Below are positions 3,459 through 22,453 of a stretch of DNA of 23,871 nucleotides, piece by piece. Source of the DNA: a virus; UHGV virus genome UHGV-0138833. The stretch is one strand, 5' to 3'. How positions within the stretch are numbered: position 1 is the first letter of the stretch; each line of letters opens with the position of its first letter. The position numbers and the translations under genes are program-made. The notes under the pieces are model-generated. The model was not told the DNA's origin, ran no database searches, and was given only the letters and a program-made list of their open reading frames with translations.

Positions 3459-4274
3459 TCACTCTCCTTTGATGCGAATGCCAGTAGCGCGGATTGCATC
3501 GATGACTTCAGAAACTTTGTATGCCATTACCGTTTGGTAATCATCGTGAAAATCTGTTCGATGAAGCATGCTGCTACGTTCCGGGAGCGATATTTCCCGA
3601 GCATCCAGTTCCTTAACGCGCTCCTCCAGTTCGTAGACCCTGCATTGTTCTCTATCATCAATCAGATATAACCCAAGACATTCGCTTTCTACCCAACCGC
3701 CAAAATCATGATCGTAACGCTCACATGAAAACTCACCGTCACCGTCCTTTGTTGGAATGGTGTAACTATCTAATGGGCCACCATATGTCGGCACATTTCC
3801 CAATGTTGGATGCTCAATCCACATGAAAAATGCACGTCCGGTTATTGGGCAAATATCTGGCCGCCATTGGTTACGAACAGCCTTGGTTTCGGATAATTCT
3901 TCAGCGTGTTGTTTTACTTCCTCAAGCTCAACTCTCAGCTTCCCAACCGTAAGAGCAATATCCTCGTTCTTCTGGTCGCGGCGTTTGATGTATTGCTGGT
4001 TTCTTTCCAGCTCATCCAGCAGCGCCAAGACGGTAGCCGGATTGGCTGCAGCGATGAATTCAGCATTGGCCTGCTGTTCCATTTGGAAATCTTCATCGAA
4101 ACCGCTTTCAGGATGCGCTCCTTCAATTCTGCAAATGGGAATATATCCAGCAGCCTCGCGATGAATTAGCGCATCATCACCATCAAATCGGCCCTCTCCA
4201 TATTCGAGCGACCACTCACCACACGTTGCTTTCTCTGCCTTTTCACGCAGTGCCTGATAGTCAATCTTGCTCAC
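3459..4274 (-). CDS. Ea22/Ead-like early protein (271 aa)
   Basis: GTG start with AGGAGG RBS at 7-nt spacing. Coiled-coil N-terminal region and overall resemblance to the lambdoid Ea22 family (recollection, not searched). Confidence 0.5.
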   Translation of the reverse strand: MSKIDYQALREKAEKATCGEWSLEYGEGRFDGDDALIHREAAGYIPICRIEGAHPESGFDEDFQMEQQANAEFIAAANPATVLALLDELERNQQYIKRRDQKNEDIALTVGKLRVELEEVKQHAEELSETKAVRNQWRPDICPITGRAFFMWIEHPTLGNVPTYGGPLDSYTIPTKDGDGEFSCERYDHDFGGWVESECLGLYLIDDREQCRVYELEERVKELDAREISLPERSSMLHRTDFHDDYQTVMAYKVSEVIDAIRATGIRIKGE

Positions 4275-8889: not shown

Positions 8890-9087
8890 CACTCAACATC
8901 AATAACGGGGAGCTGTTTCGCATAAAACGGCTCCGAAACATCCAAGAACAGTTCTAAAGATATCAGCAGCTATATGATCATTTCAAGACCAAATATTGAT
9001 TCTGCAATTTCGGGACGTTACACTGTCTCTGCACCTTATAAAGCGGGTGCCGGGGGTCGCAGCCCGGAATTGTCAACGGCGATATAT

Positions 9088-9108
9088 GACGCGCCAGCGT
9101 CTTTTTTA
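9088..9108 (+). terminator. Short intrinsic terminator candidate in the leader of the second Rha gene (tR1-like position)
   Basis: Stem GACGC / GCGTC, loop GCCA, followed by TTTTTTA. Confidence 0.35.
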
Positions 9109-9273
9109 TCGTCCGCGCTCACGCACGCCAGAATTATGGTGGGCTGGGCAGGGGAGCCGAAAGGCTCGCCGGTCTCCGTTGACGCCGGTACTGCGAACCC
9201 TGTTCAGTCTGCCACCAGTGAGTTTCGCAGCTCCGGTGGTGGAAGTTTTCCACAGTCAACGGAGGCTGCCATC

Positions 9274-15131: not shown

Positions 15132-15491
15132 ATGCTCATAGATTTGGTTTTACCTTACCCGCCGACGGTGAACACTTACTGGCGACGCCGTGGCAGCACA
15201 TATTTTGTATCAAAAGCCGGGGAGCGTTATCGCCGGGCAGTGGCGCTTATTGTTCGCCAGCAGCGGCTGAAATTAAGCCTGTCCGGAAGGCTGGCGATAA
15301 AGGTGATTGCAGAGCCACCGGATAAGCGCCGTCGTGACCTGGACAATATTCTGAAAGCACCACTGGATGCACTGACACATGCGGGGTTGCTTATCGACGA
15401 CGAGCAGTTTGATGAAATCAATATTGTGCGCGGACTGCCTGTTCCTGGTGGTCGGTTGGGGATAAAAATCACAGAGCTGGAGTGCGCATGA
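15132..15491 (+). CDS. rusA: RusA-family Holliday junction resolvase (119 aa)
   Basis: Close resemblance to E. coli RusA as recalled: LPYPPTVNTYWRRRG..., DKRRRDLDNILKAPLDALTHAGLLIDDEQ, GGRLGIKITELE. Confidence 0.8.
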   Translation: MLIDLVLPYPPTVNTYWRRRGSTYFVSKAGERYRRAVALIVRQQRLKLSLSGRLAIKVIAEPPDKRRRDLDNILKAPLDALTHAGLLIDDEQFDEINIVRGLPVPGGRLGIKITELECA

Positions 15492-16177
15492 ATAACCAGT
15501 ATTTACAGTTTGTTCGTGAGCAACTCATTATCGCCACCGCCGATTTGAGTGGGGCAACAAAAGGTCAGCTTGAAGCCTGGCAGGAGAATGCCATGTTTGA
15601 TACAGGGCGTTACAGACGTAAAAAAATCCGGTACCGCGATAAGGTCACTGGAAAAATGGTAACGCTGGATAATCCACCGATCCCGGGAAAGCAATCGCTG
15701 GCGAAAGGTTCATCAATTGCCCTAGTCAGTCCGGTTGAGTTTTCGACATCATCATGGCGACGCGCCGTTCTGTCTCTTGAAGAGCATCAGAAGGCGTGGG
15801 TACTGTGGGTATACAGTGAAAATCCGAGTTGGGATTATCAGGTGGTCATTGCGAAATGGGCGTGGGATAAGTTTCAGGTGCATTTTGGCACCAGAAAAAT
15901 TACAGGGAAAACGCTTGAGCGTCTGAAGAAATTAATCTGGCTGGCGGCGCAGGATGTCAGGGGGAGGATTACTGGGTGTGACGTCTACCAGCGACAGGAA
16001 CTTGCCAGACTGTGTGGAGTTAAGTCAGACAACTGGAGCCACAATTATGCGCACTACTGGCGTGATATGTGCGACATTTTTAAGAACCTCGACAACGAAT
16101 CTTTGATTTATACCATGAAAACAAGATCGCAACAAAAAGCGACCTTTTCGCGGCGGGTTATTGCAAAAGTCAATTAA
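15488..16177 (+). CDS. Putative late-gene antiterminator (Q-like, about 229 aa)
   Basis: Assignment is positional: directly after rusA with an ATGA overlap and followed within about 70 nt by a terminator-like hairpin (lambda Q-PR'-tR' geometry). No sequence motif was confirmed. Confidence 0.4.
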   Translation: MNNQYLQFVREQLIIATADLSGATKGQLEAWQENAMFDTGRYRRKKIRYRDKVTGKMVTLDNPPIPGKQSLAKGSSIALVSPVEFSTSSWRRAVLSLEEHQKAWVLWVYSENPSWDYQVVIAKWAWDKFQVHFGTRKITGKTLERLKKLIWLAAQDVRGRITGCDVYQRQELARLCGVKSDNWSHNYAHYWRDMCDIFKNLDNESLIYTMKTRSQQKATFSRRVIAKVN

Positions 16178-16241
16178 ATCGCGTACATTTCGTGTAAATC
16201 TGATATTTTGCTGATTTTGTACACGATGGCAAACTAAACAA

Positions 16242-16272
16242 AGCCTGCTGCTGAGCGGGCTATCTTTTGTCG
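16242..16272 (+). terminator. tR'-like intrinsic terminator candidate downstream of the Q-like gene
   Basis: Stem AGCCTGC / GCGGGCT (7 bp including one G-U pair), loop TGCTGA, followed by ATCTTTTGT. Confidence 0.4.
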
Positions 16273-16449
16273 TAAGTTGAGCGAAAGACCATCGATTTTA
16301 CCTTGCTAAAACTATTCTGCTATTGCCGAGTTACCCTTTAGGTAATACACTCATCTTATAAAAGAAAGTGGTTGTTAGCCACATAGGTTAGGATGTGCGC
16401 ATACTTTGTTTGTGTGCTTTTTGTGTTTTATCTGTTAACGGAGGGGAGC

Positions 16450-16677
16450 ATGCCGAAATATCTAACACTTGCCGCTCGCGCGATCCTCTCACCTGAGAAG
16501 ATCATCAAAAAAATTGCAGATATAGCTTCCATGTGTGATGGAAAAGAAGCTAAGCATGAAAGTGACAAGTTTTTCATTGATAGTAATGGTTCGATGGTTT
16601 TGAATCGCAACAACGCTGATGTGCAAAAGGCTTTCGCAGCCAATATTAAGGGATTGAGTACTAAGAAGAAGGGTTAG
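16450..16677 (+). CDS. Hypothetical small soluble protein (75 aa), first gene of an AT-rich two-gene cassette
   Basis: Strong GGAGGGGAG RBS before ATG 16450 (track start 16393 lacks an RBS). AT-rich relative to flanking phage genes (visual estimate). Confidence 0.55.
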   Translation: MPKYLTLAARAILSPEKIIKKIADIASMCDGKEAKHESDKFFIDSNGSMVLNRNNADVQKAFAANIKGLSTKKKG

Positions 16678-16683
16678 TCTTCT

Positions 16684-17481
16684 ATGTGGGCTGCGCTGAT
16701 TGTTATTGTTTTAGTTTGTGGTTATCACTATACCAACTGCCATTTGCCGTCACGATACCGTCAAAGCAAAGCGATCGGTTGGAATGCATACTTTGATGTT
16801 GCACTGAAAGGTGGTGAGTTTCTCATAAGTGGTATTCTTATCGCTGCCTTATTGGTTGTTGTTCTGTACGCTGGAATGTCACTTTGGAACATTCCAGCGT
16901 ACTTGTTTGGTTGGTACGCTCCCTTTACTTTCGCCCATGACTTTCTCAAAATGCAAGTGTTTGGGTTGAGCATGTTCCCTGCTATGTCGATAGCTTTCAC
17001 TATTATTGTAAGTATCGGGAAGGCATCAGAGGCAACCAAAAACCATAAAGACCCACAAAAGCGCAAGGCTATTTTTGAAGAAATTGCGGCTCATAGTGCC
17101 GTGGAAAATATCCTTCTTGAATCAGTTGAGCGTGGATTGTTATTGTTGGTTACACTGAAGTCTCGCAAGGTCTATGTGGGGATGATTGATGAGGCACGTT
17201 TCAATCAGTTAGATACTAACACATTGGTGCTAATCCCTTTTATGTCCGGGTACAGAGATAAAGATACTCTGACTTTTTGTGTTGAGCATAATTATGTGGA
17301 CTACTACCTTAGTCAGGGTATCACATTAACTTCTGAGCCATTGTCAGTTTATCAGTTTAGGCATGTGTTGCCCTTCGATCAGATCGAATCTTTTTCGCTG
17401 TTTAATGTTGAAACATTCGAGACTTTCAAGGCAGGTATTGAAGGGAAGAAGGCCACTGAAGTACAGAATCAAACAAGTTAA
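16684..17481 (+). CDS. Hypothetical membrane protein (265 aa): about three N-terminal TM helices plus a ~150-aa soluble C-terminal domain
   Basis: Hydrophobic segments AALIVIVLVCGY, FLISGILIAALLVVVLYAGMSLW and VFGLSMFPAMSIAFTIIVSIG. No recognisable catalytic motif. Followed by a strong terminator. Confidence 0.6.
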   Translation: MWAALIVIVLVCGYHYTNCHLPSRYRQSKAIGWNAYFDVALKGGEFLISGILIAALLVVVLYAGMSLWNIPAYLFGWYAPFTFAHDFLKMQVFGLSMFPAMSIAFTIIVSIGKASEATKNHKDPQKRKAIFEEIAAHSAVENILLESVERGLLLLVTLKSRKVYVGMIDEARFNQLDTNTLVLIPFMSGYRDKDTLTFCVEHNYVDYYLSQGITLTSEPLSVYQFRHVLPFDQIESFSLFNVETFETFKAGIEGKKATEVQNQTS

Positions 17482-17500
17482 GGTTGTTACCTCATTAATT

Positions 17501-17527
17501 AAACCCGCCATTGAGCGGGTTTTTTGA
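17501..17527 (+). terminator. Strong rho-independent terminator closing the two-gene cassette
   Basis: AAACCCGC-CATTGA-GCGGGTTT followed by TTTTTG. Confidence 0.75.
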
Positions 17528-17643
17528 TGCCCGAAGTGCGGTACATTAAACGCGCTGGTAGTTATTAATATCGGTCTTTCAGCTTGCTGGCTTTTTCGAC
17601 AAGAGTTATTGGTATGTCACGTTAACCAGAAAAGGGAAAAGGC

Positions 17644-17841
17644 ATGCTAAAACAGCAGGATATGACCGAAACTGCCAGAGTGGTGTTTAATGAATTAAGC
17701 GTCACCGAACCGGCGACCGTCGGGGAAATTGCGCATAATACTTACCTTTCACGCGAACGTTGCCAGTTAATACTGACCCAGCTTGTTATGGCGGGTCTGG
17801 CAGATTATCAGTTCGGTTGTTACAGACGCCTTCCTCAGTGA
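17644..17841 (+). CDS. Small putative HTH DNA-binding protein (65 aa) upstream of the methyltransferase
   Basis: Segment ATVGEIAHNTYLSRERCQLILTQLVMAGLA resembles a winged-helix/HTH. Confidence 0.45.
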   Translation: MLKQQDMTETARVVFNELSVTEPATVGEIAHNTYLSRERCQLILTQLVMAGLADYQFGCYRRLPQ

Positions 17842-17939
17842 AGGCTTTTTTATTTGTGGTAATGGGCGGCTGGTGGGTGTTAGCGGCACCTGCCAGCCAT
17901 CTGCTCATGCGTTGGGTTCACAAGCAAACCTCAGGCCCA

Positions 17940-17958
17940 CTGCTTTGCGCAAAAGCAG
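17940..17958. promoter_or_regulatory. 19-bp palindrome just upstream of the methyltransferase start
   Basis: CTGCTTT-GCGCA-AAAGCAG, about 30 bp before ATG 17991. Confidence 0.35.
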
Positions 17959-17990
17959 AATGAGCCTATCAGAGACAGGCTTAATGATCC

Positions 17991-19040
17991 ATGCTTAATA
18001 CTGTAAAAATATCCAGTTGTGAGTTAATCAACGCCGACTGCCTGGAATTTATCCGGTCGTTACCCGAAAATTCTGTTGACCTGATAGTTACGGACCCGCC
18101 GTACTTTAAAGTGAAGCCTGAGGGCTGGGATAACCAGTGGAAGGGCGACGATGATTACCTGAAGTGGCTGGACCAGTGTCTGGCGCAGTTCTGGCGGGTG
18201 CTGAAACCTGCCGGAAGTCTTTACCTGTTCTGTGGTCATCGCCTGGCATCTGATATCGAAATCATGATGCGTGAACGCTTCAGTGTGCTGAACCATATTA
18301 TCTGGGCGAAGCCGTCCGGACGCTGGAACGGATGCAACAAGGAAAGCCTGCGGGCGTATTTCCCCGCCACAGAGCGCATTCTGTTCGCGGAACATTATCA
18401 GGGGCCGTATCGTCCGAAAGATGCCGGGTATGAGGCGAAGGGCAGGGCACTGAAACAGCATGTGATGGCCCCGCTGATTGCTTACTTTCGTGATGCGCGC
18501 GCTGCCCTGGGGATAACGGCAAAACAGATTGCAGATGCCACAGGAAAGAAAAACATGGTGCCGCACTGGTTCAGTGCCAGTCAGTGGCAGCTACCGAACG
18601 AAAGCGATTATCTGAAATTACAGTCGCTGTTTGCCCGGGTGGCAGAAGAGAAACATCAGCGCGGGGAACTGGAAAAGCCACACCACCAGCTGGTCAGCAC
18701 ATACAGTGAGCTGAACCGGCAGTATATGGAACTGCTGAGTGAATATAAAAATTTGCGGCGGTATTTCGGTGTGACGGTGCAGGTGCCGTACACCGATGTG
18801 TGGACGTATAAACCGGTGCAGTACTATCCCGGGAAACATCCGTGCGAAAAACCGGCAGAAATGCTGCAGCAGATAATCAGCGCAAGTAGTCGTCCTGGTG
18901 ATCTGGTTGCGGATTTTTTCATGGGGTCGGGTTCAACGGTAAAAGCGGCGATGGCACTGGGGCGTCGTGCGATTGGTGTTGAGCTGGAGACCGGACGTTT
19001 TGAGCAGACAGTCAGGGAAGTTCAGGATTTAATCGTTTGA
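17991..19040 (+). CDS. DNA amino-methyltransferase (probable N6-adenine, beta-class motif order; 349 aa)
   Basis: Catalytic motif IV DPPY (VTDPPYF) near the N-terminus and AdoMet motif I FFMGSGST near the C-terminus. No adjacent restriction endonuclease, so apparently orphan. Confidence 0.8.
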   Translation: MLNTVKISSCELINADCLEFIRSLPENSVDLIVTDPPYFKVKPEGWDNQWKGDDDYLKWLDQCLAQFWRVLKPAGSLYLFCGHRLASDIEIMMRERFSVLNHIIWAKPSGRWNGCNKESLRAYFPATERILFAEHYQGPYRPKDAGYEAKGRALKQHVMAPLIAYFRDARAALGITAKQIADATGKKNMVPHWFSASQWQLPNESDYLKLQSLFARVAEEKHQRGELEKPHHQLVSTYSELNRQYMELLSEYKNLRRYFGVTVQVPYTDVWTYKPVQYYPGKHPCEKPAEMLQQIISASSRPGDLVADFFMGSGSTVKAAMALGRRAIGVELETGRFEQTVREVQDLIV

Positions 19041-19089
19041 AACGGATGAGATTGCAGTATTAATTCCGTAACGTTATTATTCTGCGCGC

Positions 19090-19165
19090 GGCCCTTTAGC
19101 TCAGTGGTGAGAGCGAGCGACTCATAATCGCCAGGTCGCTGGTTCAAATCCAGCAAGGGCCACCA
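19090..19165 (+). tRNA. tRNA with anticodon CAU (Ile2-like, ileX/ileZ type; Met not excluded)
   Basis: Manual cloverleaf: acceptor GGCCCTT/AAGGGCC, D-arm GCTC..GAGC, anticodon loop CTCATAA, T-arm GCTGG-TTCAAAT-CCAGC, encoded CCA. Resembles E. coli ileX as recalled. Confidence 0.8.
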
Positions 19166-19172
19166 TCACATA

Positions 19173-19249
19173 CCGCCATTAGCTCATCAGGAAAGAGCGC
19201 CAGCCTTCGAAGCTGGCTGCGCGGGGTTCAAGTCCCCGATGGCGGTCCA
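19173..19249 (+). tRNA. tRNA-Arg (anticodon UCG)
   Basis: Manual cloverleaf: acceptor CCGCCAT/ATGGCGG, anticodon stem CCAGC/GCTGG with loop CTTCGAA, T-arm CGGGG-TTCAAGT-CCCCG, encoded CCA. Confidence 0.75.
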
Positions 19250-19262
19250 TTATCTGCATCAT

Positions 19263-19339
19263 GCGTTGTTAGCTCAGCCGGACAGAGCAATTGCCTTCTA
19301 AGCAATCGGTCACTGGTTCGAATCCAGTACAGCGCGCCA
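19263..19339 (+). tRNA. tRNA-Arg (anticodon UCU)
   Basis: Manual cloverleaf: acceptor GCGTTGT/ACAGCGC (one G-U pair), anticodon stem ATTGC/GCAAT with loop CTTCTAA, T-arm ACTGG-TTCGAAT-CCAGT, G73, encoded CCA. Confidence 0.8.
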
Positions 19340-19446
19340 TATTCATTCTTCCAGATTCCTTTCGGCAGAGCCTTATACTGAAATATACCTGGCTCAGGAT
19401 ATTGTTGAAAATATTATATGTTTGTCAAAAATAAAAGTTCTGTTAA

Positions 19447-19803
19447 GTGTTGATTGAGTGTTTGTTATACGGTCTAATGGTTTTTTCAGCATTAAATATT
19501 TATCATTCATATGGTGTGGGTAGAGTGAATATTGATGAGGCGTCGGGGTGTTTCATCCTTAGGCAGCGTATTGATATAGTCAATGCAGAACGAGCAAAGG
19601 CCTTCAGCCGTTTGACAGTTTTGTTCTGTACTCCTGATCGTCTTTCGGGAAGAGACGTTATTATTCTGAATAGTGATGCTATACAGAGGGTTTGCGATGA
19701 GTTCATGGTGGCTAATTCAGAATTATTTGCTCTTGTTCAGGAGTACAACAGAATAGCCAGGACCTGTGGTATGGATGAACTTCGGATTACTCATCTGGGG
19801 TAG
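19447..19803 (+). CDS. Hypothetical protein (about 109-118 aa) in the AT-rich island after the tRNAs
   Basis: ORF with uncertain start (TTG 19447 or ATG 19474). AT-rich; no recognisable motif. Confidence 0.4.
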   Translation: MLIECLLYGLMVFSALNIYHSYGVGRVNIDEASGCFILRQRIDIVNAERAKAFSRLTVLFCTPDRLSGRDVIILNSDAIQRVCDEFMVANSELFALVQEYNRIARTCGMDELRITHLG

Positions 19804-20195
19804 ATACATATCTGGATTATCACCGGTTACGGTAAAAAGTGATTGCTTACTGTTTTTGTGAATGGCATTGCAGCAGCCGGATAATGTCAGTGCTGGCTGA
19901 CGGTGTGCTGGTGGCGGGTGTGGTGGTTGCTGCTTTCCCGTTGCTGAAAAAGAAAACGCCAGACTGTTAGCCGGGTATCAGTTAGCGGGAGAAATTTTTA
20001 AATACTTCACAATTCAGGCGGTTGACTGTTGTCTGGTTTGCGGGGAGTTTGTTAAAAGAAACTGGCATGGTGAATCCCCCTGTGCGGAGGGGCAATCAGC
20101 GAGTAGGTATATGGGATAATCGCGGATTCAGGTGCTGGTACTGAATTCACCGGGAGGCACCCGGCACCATGCAATGGCACATAGCGCCACTCTCC

Positions 20196-20231
20196 AGCCC
20201 CTCTCCGGAGGGGCTGTTTATATTGATTTTG
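20196..20231 (+). terminator. Rho-independent terminator ending a GC-rich structured segment
   Basis: AGCCCCTC-TCCG-GAGGGGCT (8-bp stem) followed by GTTTATATTGATTTTG. A sibling hairpin CCCCT-GTGCGG-AGGGG lies at 20077-20092. Confidence 0.65.
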
Positions 20232-20250
20232 TCAGATGTGAGTAAACTCC

Positions 20251-20586
20251 TTATGGACTTTGTTGTTTTAGCCCATAAGGACATATTTGCAGAGTGCAAC
20301 GGTTATTAAAGCATTCATTCAATACGTTATCTGTATTTGTAGGGCATTCCTGGCTGTTTTTGATTAAATTCCAGAATGTTTTATTGAATGGTACTACGTT
20401 GTAAATGGTTACAGGCAGCACTTTGTTATTGAGCATGATGCCTGTGTGAGTCAGTGTAAATATACTTTCAGGAGGTAAGAAAGCATCCGATTGATACCAG
20501 ATTATTAATTTTATTTTACTCCATATGACTGAAAAAGATATTCCGCATGATGGCTGGATAACTGTATCAATCACAATCCACTTCAT
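20251..20586 (-). CDS. Hypothetical protein (111 aa), very AT-rich, convergent with the preceding plus-strand unit
   Basis: Good AAGGAAA RBS about 5 nt upstream of ATG 20586. Cys-containing; no recognisable domain. Confidence 0.5.
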
Positions 20587-20846
20587 TTAGTTTCCTTGTT
20601 TATGCCTTGCTGGTGATGTTCTGAAAAGTATAAATGATATTTTTGATTGTAAACCATAGAGCAGAATTATTTTTCTGATGTTGTTTATTGTTTATTTAAA
20701 TGCAGGGTGGTTTATATCTCGTCTTGTAGTTTATCCATGCATATCTGCTTGATGATGAGGTTTTTAATTAAGGTATGGTTTTGTGTTTTTTCTGTATTAC
20801 ATGTCAGGTATTTTAAAGAATCATTTTTCAGATGGTGGAAAGAACC

Positions 20847-21035
20847 ATGGCATTTAAACACTATGATGTTGTCAGGGCGGCGTCGCCGTCAGATCTTGCG
20901 GAAAAGCTGACACATAAACTGAAAGAGGGCTGGCAGCCGTTTGGTAGTCCGGTGGCCATAACCCCTTATACCCTGATGCAGGCGATTGCAGCAGAAGGTG
21001 ATGTGGTGGTCAGTGGTGCAACTGAGCCGGAGTGA
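20847..21035 (+). CDS. Hypothetical small protein (about 63 aa) upstream of the holin
   Basis: Start taken at MAFKHYD (ATG 20847). Family not determinable from sequence alone. Confidence 0.5.
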   Translation: MAFKHYDVVRAASPSDLAEKLTHKLKEGWQPFGSPVAITPYTLMQAIAAEGDVVVSGATEPE

Positions 21036-21278
21036 TACTACGTCATCGTACTGGCCCGGCATTCCAGGCCATAAAAGACGGTCTGGCAGTGGGACTAAAT
21101 GCACTGACGCTGACGGATATTACCAAAAATGCAACGTATGGCGTTGAGATGGAAAGTCTGGTGCTGGAGATAAATGCACCGGCATCATCATAAAAAGTGA
21201 GCCAGTCAAATGGAAGGTATCGTTAAACTCACCGGTAGTGTCAGTGGGTCGTCTGAGACGCCTGCATGAGTTATCAGA

Positions 21279-21310
21279 GCCATCAGTACTTAACTGGTGG
21301 CTTTTTTATT
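21279..21310 (+). terminator. Rho-independent terminator immediately upstream of the holin gene
   Basis: Stem GCCATCAG / CTGGTGGC (8 bp, one G-U pair), loop TACTTAA, followed by TTTTTTATT. Confidence 0.6.
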
Positions 21311-21342
21311 GTTGTCAGCTTCCGGATAACGGGAGACGGGGT

Positions 21343-21558
21343 ATGTACCAGATGGAAAAAATCACAACAGGTGTGTCATACACCACGTCAGCGGTGGGAA
21401 CGGGCTACTGGTTCCTGCAGTTGCTGGACAGGGTTTCCCCGTCTCAGTGGGCGGCAATAGGCGTGCTGGGGAGTCTGCTGTTTGGGCTGCTGACATATCT
21501 GACTAACCTGTATTTCAAAATCAAAGAGGACCGGCGTAAGGCGGCGCGGGGAGAGTAA
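21343..21558 (+). CDS. Pinholin (phage 21 S-type holin, 71/68 aa) with dual-start motif
   Basis: [10 protein letters not shown]... has two in-frame starts (Met1, Met4). Core ...[51 protein letters not shown] closely matches the S21 pinholin as recalled. GGAG RBS present. Confidence 0.8.
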
Positions 21559-21562
21559 AGTG

Positions 21563-22453
21563 ATGAATAAAAAATATGAACTGGTTGTTAAGGGGATAAA
21601 TAATTACGGGGATAAGGTTACTGTTACTGTGAAGCCGGAAGGTGACGGGCAAGCGTCGCTGTTGTTGCCAGATGTGGCGATTAGTCTTGACCGTACTGAA
21701 GGTGCCACGCTGGAGTTTTACGAAGCTGAGGCGAAAAAGCAGGCGAAGCAGTTTTTCATGGATGTTGCTGCCGGGTTATGTGAAGGGGATGGTCCGTTGC
21801 CGGAAAAGCGCCCCGTAATTTTAGAGGCGCAGGATGTGTTGATAACCTACAAAGGAAAGCTACCGGGAAGAATTACTTGTTCTCTGAAGATGCCGCCGTC
21901 AACACTGCGGTCAGAAAAAGATGATGTTGAATCACGTATTGAAAAACTGGAGAGCTACGTCGTTGAGCTGAATAAGAAATGGTCGATATTGGTGCCTTCT
22001 GGCGATGAAAAGCAGTTTGCTGCGTTTGACGATTATTGTCGGAAAGTGATGAGCAGAAATCTCGCAGAGTGTTTCAGTATTCATAATGATAATTTCAGTG
22101 ACCCGGAATGGGAGTGTAACCGGCCATCCTTTGTTGTATCCGGTGATGCTGGGAAAATAACCATCTCAGAAAATGGGAAAGTAACACCTCCATCGCACCA
22201 GCACAGTGAGGAGCTCATTGAATTTGCCATTGATTACCTGAAGAACAATAAAAAGCAGGGGCTGATGAAGCGCGTTGGCCGTTGCATGGGATATCTGCAG
22301 GTAGCTGCTGAGATTGAAGCGCTGGCCAGTGGTGCTGATAAGGATGCAATTGTGCGGGAGGCTCTTCTTCGTGATTTTAATACTCCACCCTTTAAAAAAG
22401 TGCCGGCTTACTGGCTTCATCCGGGGCTGACTTATCTTAAAGTGCGTATTTAG
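21563..22453 (+). CDS. Hypothetical soluble protein (296 aa) inserted between pinholin and endolysin
   Basis: GGAGAG RBS 7 nt upstream of ATG 21563. No TM segment or recognisable catalytic motif. Lower GC than flanking lysis genes (visual estimate). Confidence 0.6.
   Translation: MNKKYELVVKGINNYGDKVTVTVKPEGDGQASLLLPDVAISLDRTEGATLEFYEAEAKKQAKQFFMDVAAGLCEGDGPLPEKRPVILEAQDVLITYKGKLPGRITCSLKMPPSTLRSEKDDVESRIEKLESYVVELNKKWSILVPSGDEKQFAAFDDYCRKVMSRNLAECFSIHNDNFSDPEWECNRPSFVVSGDAGKITISENGKVTPPSHQHSEELIEFAIDYLKNNKKQGLMKRVGRCMGYLQVAAEIEALASGADKDAIVREALLRDFNTPPFKKVPAYWLHPGLTYLKVRI

Follow-up and report, generated by a model that had tools for sequence, protein, structure and literature searches.

A predicted STnc100 small-RNA gene between what are very probably two adjacent cargo slots, one of them holding iraL, in a lambdoid prophage

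The stretch of DNA analysed here (the window) is the virus genome UHGV-0138833, 23,871 nucleotides (nt) in length, the whole of which is a lambdoid prophage, and the region in question is a 1507-bp island at positions 19,340 to 20,846. Very probably this region, in a lambdoid prophage of the CFT073-potB / O104:H4 type, consists of two neighbouring cargo ('moron') slots within the leader of the late genes, with a gene for a small RNA (sRNA), STnc100, lying between them. The original prediction, made from the letters alone, had proposed convergent genes of unknown function around a structured non-coding segment; the RNA can now be named STnc100 and the convergent minus-strand gene iraL, and the earlier label of unknown function fits only the plus-strand open reading frame (ORF) of 118 amino acids, hereafter ORF118, and a peptide of the DUF3927 family. 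STnc100 and iraL, here accompanied by these two small uncharacterised genes, are a known and widespread pairing and not a new one. Copies 100% identical to the island are found in hundreds of E. coli genomes, many of them complete, including those of the O104:H4 outbreak lineage and of relatives of CFT073, and at least 80% of it is held by 863 of 5426 complete E. coli genomes.

A scan against the whole of Rfam revealed STnc100 (RF02076) at 20036-20225 on the plus strand. The match scores 132.4 bits, where the gathering score is 47 (E = 2.6e-29), and covers the full model, positions 1-206. The twin hairpins pointed out in the original prediction are present, at 20076-20092 and 20195-20216, and both are helices of this model. 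When 20065-20230 was folded alone, a minimum free energy (MFE) of -69.5 kcal/mol was obtained (z = -2.66 against shuffles), and by both the Rfam E-value and the z-score the segment is structured far beyond chance. Judged on its sequence it is a small-RNA gene, a canonical STnc100, as had been suspected of a stretch ending in a terminator. Two details of the earlier description needed correction. The middle segment is not GC-rich as such, its GC content of 0.475-0.53 being about that of neighbouring phage genes in the window (0.50-0.59) and high only beside its flanks, which are indeed AT-rich on both sides (0.29-0.43); and of the roughly 350 bp described as non-coding about a third is a DUF3927 gene of 43 amino acids, whereas the RNA gene proper occupies about 20029-20230. 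The parts of the RNA gene are:

20022-20058, plus strand: predicted sigma-70 promoter of STnc100, with -35 box TTGTCT at 20029-20034 or TTGACT at 20022-20027 and -10 box TAAAAG at 20053-20058
20065-20172, plus strand: structured core of 108 nt, from Rfam RF02076, the MFE fold and covariation
20065-20072 with 20165-20172, plus strand: P1 of the core
20076-20092, plus strand: P2 hairpin of the core
20095-20101 with 20133-20139 (the P4 loop), plus strand: pseudoknot of the core
20124-20131 with 20141-20148, plus strand: P4 of the core
20150-20164, plus strand: P5 hairpin of the core
20173-20194, plus strand: variable segment between core and terminator; homology to other phages stops at 20173
20195-20230, plus strand: intrinsic terminator of STnc100, a 9-bp stem with 7 GC pairs and a T-rich tail, model positions 178-206

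The structure is borne out by covariation among homologues, which was followed in 63 diverse STnc100 cores. In a MAFFT alignment of these the inner P4 and pseudoknot columns are out of register (34-44% paired), and register-free tests of matched against permuted strands were used instead. The three outer pairs of P1 covary (GCA/UGC, GUG/CAC and UUA/UAA), pair 3-151 being GC in 45 copies, AU in 12 and GU in 3, and outer P1 scored 2.22 matched against 1.78 permuted. P4 is 97% paired at its base, where 28 double changes occur, and its matched strands gave 6.95 contiguous pairs against 4.52 +/- 0.15 when permuted. The strand following P2 pairs with the loop of P4, crossing P4, and therefore forms a pseudoknot; its partners change together (AUCAGC/GCUGGU, UUUGAUC/GAUCAAA, GCUAGGC/GUCUAGC and others), with 6.46 matched against 5.42 +/- 0.14 permuted and none of 300 permutations reaching 6.0. 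The structure line that cmscan displays for the Rfam family does not contain this pairing, and the literature searched made no mention of the pseudoknot, nor of the tandem arrays and the kdgM context of STnc100 described below.

STnc100 was first reported from Salmonella Hfq co-immunoprecipitation data. Few bacterial sRNAs are annotated as often, and no function has been assigned to it (PMC9029176). In E. coli O157:H7 EDL933 eleven copies are transcribed, one of them Northern-positive (PMC5331693), and in Stx2 phages a copy just downstream of stx2 has been found in vesicles, the STnc100-stxB pairing proposed in the same paper being a prediction only (PMC12370729). PasD1 and PasD2 of enteropathogenic E. 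coli (EPEC) are 172-173 nt long, Northern-validated and dependent on Hfq for their stability, and have been equated with EcOnc13 of enterohaemorrhagic E. coli (EHEC) (PMC8550237); a preprint argues that they and STnc100 come from a common ancestor (bioRxiv 10.64898/2026.05.13.724894). An alignment of PasD2 of strain E2348/69 with the window shows that the promoter, P2, pseudoknot and P4 are shared, as is the 5' strand of P1, and the order DUF3927 gene, sRNA, nanS-p is common to both. PasD differs in its 3' seed, UGUGAG, and in having a degenerate P5 hairpin and P1 3' strand. The window copy keeps CCGGGAGGCACCCGGCACCAUGC and lacks the PasD 3' segment; its core is canonical, and it is therefore an STnc100 and not a PasD. 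Compared with the family at large it has the same helices, the same layout of promoter, core and terminator and the same place between cargo (stx or tci) and the nanS-p or lysis genes; its segment 20173-20194 is unlike its counterparts in 933W, Shigella phage 75/02 and mEp460, but nothing essential differs.

For the promoter, 92 non-identical copies were compared, anchored on the invariant GTGGTGAATCCCC. In many of them a -10-like TAAAnT box ends 7-8 nt ahead of this motif, and in many of the same copies, from many genera, TTGACn is found about 17 nt upstream of the box. In the window the -10 box is placed 7 nt upstream of 20065. As estimated from RNA-seq, the 5' end of PasD2 (NC_011601 741157, PMC8550237 Table S6) is the leading G of GCAUGGUG; its counterpart in the window is position 20065, the first base of P1. 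By this analogy transcription of STnc100 is predicted to start at about 20065, and the RNA would run to the T-tract past the 20195-20216 hairpin, a predicted length of about 155-160 nt that agrees, as far as predicted ends allow, with the earlier guess of a transcript ending near 20231. This hairpin is followed by TTTATATTGATTTT and was called terminator-like by a terminator scan, again as the original prediction had it. The variable segment 20173-20194 is likely the single-stranded pairing (seed) region, by analogy with PasD, whose chimeras in RIL-seq, in which interacting RNAs are ligated and sequenced, fall in the equivalent last ~50 nt (PMC8550237 supplement).

Two other identities were considered for the RNA and rejected. 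Like STnc100, lambda 6S / StxS is a small RNA of lysogens that comes from the late leader, where a terminator follows a constitutive promoter, but it is the pR'-tR' transcript, which STnc100 is not: in the compared loci L080 and L100 a separate promoter and terminator stand directly after Q, between it and STnc100, and in the window the Q-like gene (15482-16177) lies 3.9 kb upstream of STnc100. The sequence after Q in L080 is one which we take to resemble lambda pR'. A put-like antiterminator RNA is not supported either, homologues accumulating as terminated RNAs of ~170-190 nt (PMC8550237, PMC5331693).

The division of the island into slots follows from comparison with phages that carry stx, above all 933W. 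The slots and their anchors are:

19090-19339, plus strand: tRNA array with anticodon CAT (Ile, ileZ in RefSeq), Arg-TCG and Arg-TCT, from ARAGORN and Rfam; left anchor of the cargo region
19348-20006, plus strand: cargo slot 1; 933W homology ends at 19347 and restarts at 20007
20174-20845, with iraL on the minus strand: cargo slot 2, between STnc100 and the deleted nanS-p gene
20832-21193, plus strand: what is left of the nanS-p (SASA/YjhS) esterase gene, namely its DUF1737 N-terminus and part of its C-terminus; anchors the cargo region on the right

The three tRNAs end at 19339 as described, and 18939-19347 is 91.5% identical to the stretch of 933W comprising the tRNA promoter (pT), ileZ, argN and argO. 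Homology is resumed at 20007-20173, where it consists of STnc100, beginning 46 nt past stxB2 in 933W, and a second time at 20846, the beginning of the nanS-p esterase gene, giving boundaries of 19347/20007 and 20173/20846. The 933W counterpart of the first interruption consists of a terminator, stxA2 and stxB2, and because the 933W flanks align on both sides of stx2AB, 19348-20006 is, by alignment, exactly the stx2AB-equivalent slot. The proposal that the cargo occupies the position of stx thus holds for 19348-20006, whereas iraL sits in a second slot past the sRNA. No trace of stx was found in the island, the 933W alignment skipping stx2AB entirely, in agreement with the earlier statement that there is no toxin. 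Homology to several phages is likewise interrupted at 20007 and 20173, the latter being the first base beyond P1, and the conserved RNA core is therefore a mosaic joint. The first tRNA (19090-19165, plus strand, anticodon CAT) was called Met by ARAGORN, and its homologue is tRNA-Ile (ileZ) in RefSeq and in the 933W record; a CAT anticodon can be read as Ile once it is lysidine-modified.

The same arrangement is found in related phages. STnc100 follows directly on stx1B in Shigella phage 75/02 Stx (L004), on stx2B in 933W and on tciB in JLK-2012, in each case ahead of nanS-p, and in the window too it lies between the antiterminator or cargo and the nanS-p or lysis genes. Shigella phage 75/02 Stx has the order stx1AB, STnc100, esterase and JLK-2012 the order tciA-tciB (DUF3927), STnc100, esterase, with tciA-tciB as the content of slot 1. 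These phages and 933W share with the window the tRNA array on the left and STnc100 followed by nanS-p on the right; where 933W and 75/02 Stx hold a toxin, slot 1 of the window holds ORF118 and the DUF3927 gene. The window has in addition the iraL cassette after the sRNA, a place taken in the Stx1 phage by AgvB on the minus strand. In L004 this AgvB (RF02702, 4166-4225, minus strand) meets STnc100 (3972-4170, plus strand) at the 3' end of the latter, and as convergent RNA genes they have a terminator region in common, where the window has iraL; neither AgvB nor AsxR (RF02702, RF02703) had a match in the window even at E <= 5. In the potB prophage of CFT073 the gene order is that of the window: tRNAs, DUF3927, a minus-strand pseudogene call, 'IraM', a DUF1737 remnant and a holin.

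Slot 2 holds the minus-strand gene, whose reading frame was confirmed:

20251-20586, minus strand: iraL, 111 amino acids, RssB anti-adaptor of the IraM/IraL family, from CFT073 identity and NF007393
20587-20660, minus strand: 5' untranslated region and predicted promoter of iraL, with -35 box TTTACA at 20653-20648, a 17-nt spacer, -10 box TACTTT at 20630-20625 and a start at about 20619

Direct translation showed the protein to be 100% identical to IraL of the CFT073 potB prophage, and the CFT073 and O104:H4 loci carry the same protein accession for it. With 162 bits, where the cut-off is 121, and with residues 1-110 covering profile positions 1-113, it belongs to NCBIfam NF007393, a family that also includes K-12 IraM and Salmonella RssC; no significant Pfam match was found. 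Sixty-six of its 111 residues are identical to K-12 IraM, and crystallised K-12 IraM (PDB 8twd) is matched at E = 9e-32 with the N-terminal 78 residues aligning throughout. In PMC4045071 the CFT073 type is recognised by at least 95% identity to CFT073 iraL together with a conserved native promoter, and here the identity of the protein is accompanied by 245 nt of upstream sequence that are 96.7% identical to CFT073, gap-free. Gene and promoter together form a cassette found in 1446 of the 5426 complete E. coli genomes. The gene of K-12 is of another class, its homology being restricted to the coding region (70.9% at the nucleotide level) with no shared upstream region, and therefore the regulation differs; the K-12 iraM locus has neither STnc100 nor shared flanks. 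The promoter region of K-12 iraM is reported to respond to Mg2+ starvation.

The CFT073 gene, formerly ycgW, was named iraL by Hryckowian et al. 2014, who placed it in the 'potB genomic island' (PMC4045071). According to the same work IraL stabilises RpoS in logarithmic phase, acts from its own promoter even when transferred to K-12 and binds only RssB's N-terminal domain, and the transcription start was mapped by 5' RACE and a clone made that spans -100 to +33. The hexamers assigned here, and the 33-nt leader that follows from them, fit this '-100 to +33' clone, the choice of hexamers being putative. By analogy with the identical CFT073 protein, in the same prophage context, IraL of the window would raise RpoS in growing cells. 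The ribosome-binding site (RBS), described earlier as strong, is present as AAGGAA 7 nt ahead of the ATG, but it is decent and not exceptional. The terminator hairpin of STnc100 is common to the 3' end of convergent iraL, whose stop codon is 35 nt away on the other strand.

Some observations weigh against this reading of the region. No demonstrated target or phenotype of STnc100 was found in the accessible literature, and the transcript, its binding to Hfq and the effect on RpoS are carried over from homologous or identical loci and would apply to this strain by analogy. The shared hairpin has no T-run on the iraL strand, and therefore the iraL transcript may overlap the 3' end of STnc100 to some extent in antisense. 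The Prokaryotic Genome Annotation Pipeline (PGAP) makes no call for ORF118, which has an ambiguous start codon and no clear Shine-Dalgarno sequence. The core, moreover, is far more conserved than a seed-type sRNA needs, and together with tandem arrays and a chromosomal mRNA leader this hints at a function beyond base-pairing.

When STnc100 was followed beyond the window, the 20-mer CCGGGAGGCACCCGGCACCA of the core was found in at least 120 stretches across enterobacterial genera, those tested being called STnc100 by Rfam. Outside E. coli the gene has a Q gene (PF03589) on one side and the holin-lysozyme genes on the other, frequently in 2-4 tandem copies. In Superficieibacter, Enterobacter and others such copies are spaced about 250 nt apart in the interval from the Q gene to the holin gene, each with its own terminator, and matches to isrI (RF01392) are interleaved in some of the arrays. 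Chromosomal, non-prophage copies also occur, between a LuxR-type gene on the minus strand and genes for a KdgM porin (PF06178) and a periplasmic pectate lyase (PF06917). The loci are:

Tandem STnc100 arrays: L043 6323-7018; L114 5406-6576; L063 2740-3154; L080 1903-2346; L054; L086
Chromosomal kdgM-type STnc100 loci: L037, L052, L087, L088, L119, L046 and 11 more

In all 17 chromosomal loci STnc100 is co-oriented with the porin, and in Klebsiella the distance from the end of the core to the porin ATG is only about 95 nt, and the element is there probably part of the mRNA leader.

These occurrences bear on an alternative, namely that the core is mainly cis-acting or structural and not a classic trans-acting sRNA, serving as a regulated leader or attenuator, as a protein-binding or stabilising scaffold with exchangeable 3' seeds, or as a recombination joint for cargo swaps. 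We consider this unlikely, though it would account for the recurrence of GGUGAAUCCCC and CCGGGAGGCACCCGGCACCA in many enterobacterial genera, the covarying pseudoknot and P4 helix, the tandem copies ahead of the holin gene in several genera, the constant orientation before the porin-pectate lyase operon and, in Klebsiella, the short distance to it, the mosaic breaks at the edges of the element and the fact that PasD keeps Hfq-dependent pairing despite its decayed P5 and P1 3' strand. Against this, the invariance of the two motifs is partly circular, since the copies were gathered with exact patterns, the 17 chromosomal loci probably represent a single orthologous locus and so one event, and neither a ligand, a protein partner nor read-through has been shown for the core. 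The discrete terminated RNAs of expected size that accumulate in EPEC and EHEC fit a stand-alone sRNA and speak against an antiterminator (PMC8550237, PMC5331693). It is also doubtful, though conceivable, that the ~105-nt core, closed by P1 and comprising invariant P2 and P5 hairpins and an H-type pseudoknot, is a functional RNA domain itself, a protein- or ligand-binding or cis-regulatory module that phages reuse singly or in tandem ahead of lysis or cargo genes, that Klebsiella, Kosakonia, Raoultella, Citrobacter and Enterobacter have co-opted as the leader of the kdgM porin-pectate lyase genes, and whose variable 3' tail provides sRNA seeds.

STnc100 as an sRNA gene between two slots leaves the content of slot 1 to be accounted for, which is:

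19447-19803, plus strand: ORF118, 118 amino acids, phrog_2873; alternative starts ATG 19477 and GTG 19525
19839-19970, plus strand: 43-amino-acid DUF3927 (TciB-like) gene, Pfam PF13064; PGAP coding sequence WP_001438304.1

ORF118, the plus-strand frame of the original prediction, matches phrog_2873 (E = 1.7e-70). Its family is small, with 23 matches in a set of 5.8 billion clustered proteins and 21 representatives in one of 1.84 billion. It falls into two clades of ~60% identity, and more distant relatives of 91-106 amino acids were found. An alignment with the clade-2 gene of L012 is free of indels over the last 279 nt, with 68% nucleotide identity and the same stop codon, and the differences are distributed over the codon positions as 24/21/42; as far as such an alignment can tell, this excess at third positions is what a translated gene shows. 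Some clade-2 members also resemble ORF118 in the N-terminal extension, which leaves 19447, 19477 and 19525 as candidate starts. AlphaFold (AF2) modelled the 92-residue core, from only six sequences, as a two-helix hairpin (helices 3-35 and 50-81) with a predicted local distance difference test score of 85. Foldseek gave no match to the model in PDB or BFVD at E <= 0.001 and fold searches gave generic coiled coils only, and a function derived from this generic helical hairpin was discarded.

A quite improbable alternative is that 19447-19803 stays open by chance and forms no gene, being part of the AT-rich leader of the DUF3927/STnc100 unit. It would agree with the tiny family, the lack of annotation in CFT073 and O104:H4, the absence of any Pfam or NCBIfam match, the three possible starts and the weak RBS, but two diverged clades would not be expected to keep frame and stop with third-position differences prevailing, and the distant relatives and the confident helical model speak for a gene as well. 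The frame is moreover intact in all relatives checked, CFT073 and O104:H4 among them, and like the DUF3927 peptide shows no sign of the decay that had been considered earlier. In clade 2 (L008, L012) the ORF118 homologue directly follows a 241-amino-acid prophage regulator of the AraC type (HTH_18). In L008 it is flanked by two STnc100 copies, and therefore each cargo unit ends with its own STnc100.

The DUF3927 gene is identified by Pfam PF13064 (92.7 bits against a gathering cut-off of 25, E = 1.3e-26) and by phrog_1470 (E = 1.5e-11), and its peptide has a hydrophobic stretch that is probably membrane-spanning. The same type of gene precedes PasD2 in E2348/69 and STnc100 in JLK-2012. As a guess, to which the toxin slot and the small size are suited, ORF118 and the DUF3927 peptide may be accessory or host-modulating peptides.

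At 20055-20180, inside the STnc100 gene, RefSeq/PGAP places a partial 'hypothetical protein' pseudogene, which is on the minus strand. That the middle segment is a decayed coding remnant, of stx or of this pseudogene, and not an RNA gene is scarcely credible, even with the PGAP call and a 71-amino-acid minus-strand ORF annotated at this place in the vB_EcoS-640R1 record, since no similarity to stx was found, the 42-amino-acid minus-strand frame has no match in Pfam, NCBIfam or PHROGs, the segment fits the covariance model end to end with compensatory changes, and its homologues are transcribed from the plus strand as discrete RNAs (PMC5331693, PMC8550237); the protein call is probably a spurious one on an RNA gene.

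Outside the island, the esterase gene on the right has been reduced by deletion. Its two remnant ORFs match the 634-amino-acid phrog_143 at residues 1-58 and 582-632, and 20854-21066 and 21051-21561 match the two ends of yjhS of JLK-2012, with ~1.49 kb missing and a 16-nt overlap at 21051-21066; CFT073 carries the same remnant. On the left the antiterminator gene was located:

15482-16177, plus strand: Q-like antiterminator gene, phrog_304

A 265-amino-acid ORF at 16684-17481 had been a candidate for this role and was rejected in favour of the Q-like gene. Between the latter and the tRNAs (15482-19040) are found a 94-amino-acid ORF without a family, the 265-amino-acid ORF (phrog_3630), a strong terminator at 17502-17527, a 65-amino-acid winged-helix-like ORF and a DNA methyltransferase, the genes of this interval being further cargo in the late leader. 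At some distance, isrK (9031-9107, 58.7 bits) and C4 antisense RNA (9132-9219, 78.8 bits) were found by Rfam side by side on the plus strand and are a c4 immunity-like RNA module of the P1/P7 type inside a lambdoid prophage. A 297-amino-acid ORF at 21560-22453 (plus strand, phrog_1085) lies between the holin and endolysin genes.

From these parts a course of events can be proposed. STnc100 and PasD RNAs have been seen elsewhere to build up in lysogens. By homology with PasD/EcOnc13 and the EDL933 copies, STnc100 would be made in lysogens from its own sigma-70 promoter, would bind Hfq and, as in PasD, would pair with mRNAs through its variable 3' part. Its terminator would insulate the downstream late genes before induction, and after induction RNA polymerase modified by Q would arrive from upstream and pass this terminator into the lysis genes. 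The convergent iraL transcript would end at the shared hairpin or read into it, and IraL would block RssB so that RpoS escapes ClpXP, as shown elsewhere for identical or homologous parts. Both iraL and STnc100 would be expressed from a repressed prophage by their own promoters, a lysogenic conversion that would tune the stress physiology of the host.

The locus is thus a common and already annotated combination, the two main parts of which have names and a literature. In lambdoid prophages the stx slot serves for cargo in general and has a conserved sRNA gene at its border, and non-toxigenic relatives use the neighbouring slot for a regulator of the host, IraL, which raises RpoS. The anatomy of the STnc100 core may be new, a conserved pseudoknotted domain found across the Enterobacteriaceae, often in tandem copies, and also in a kdgM leader.

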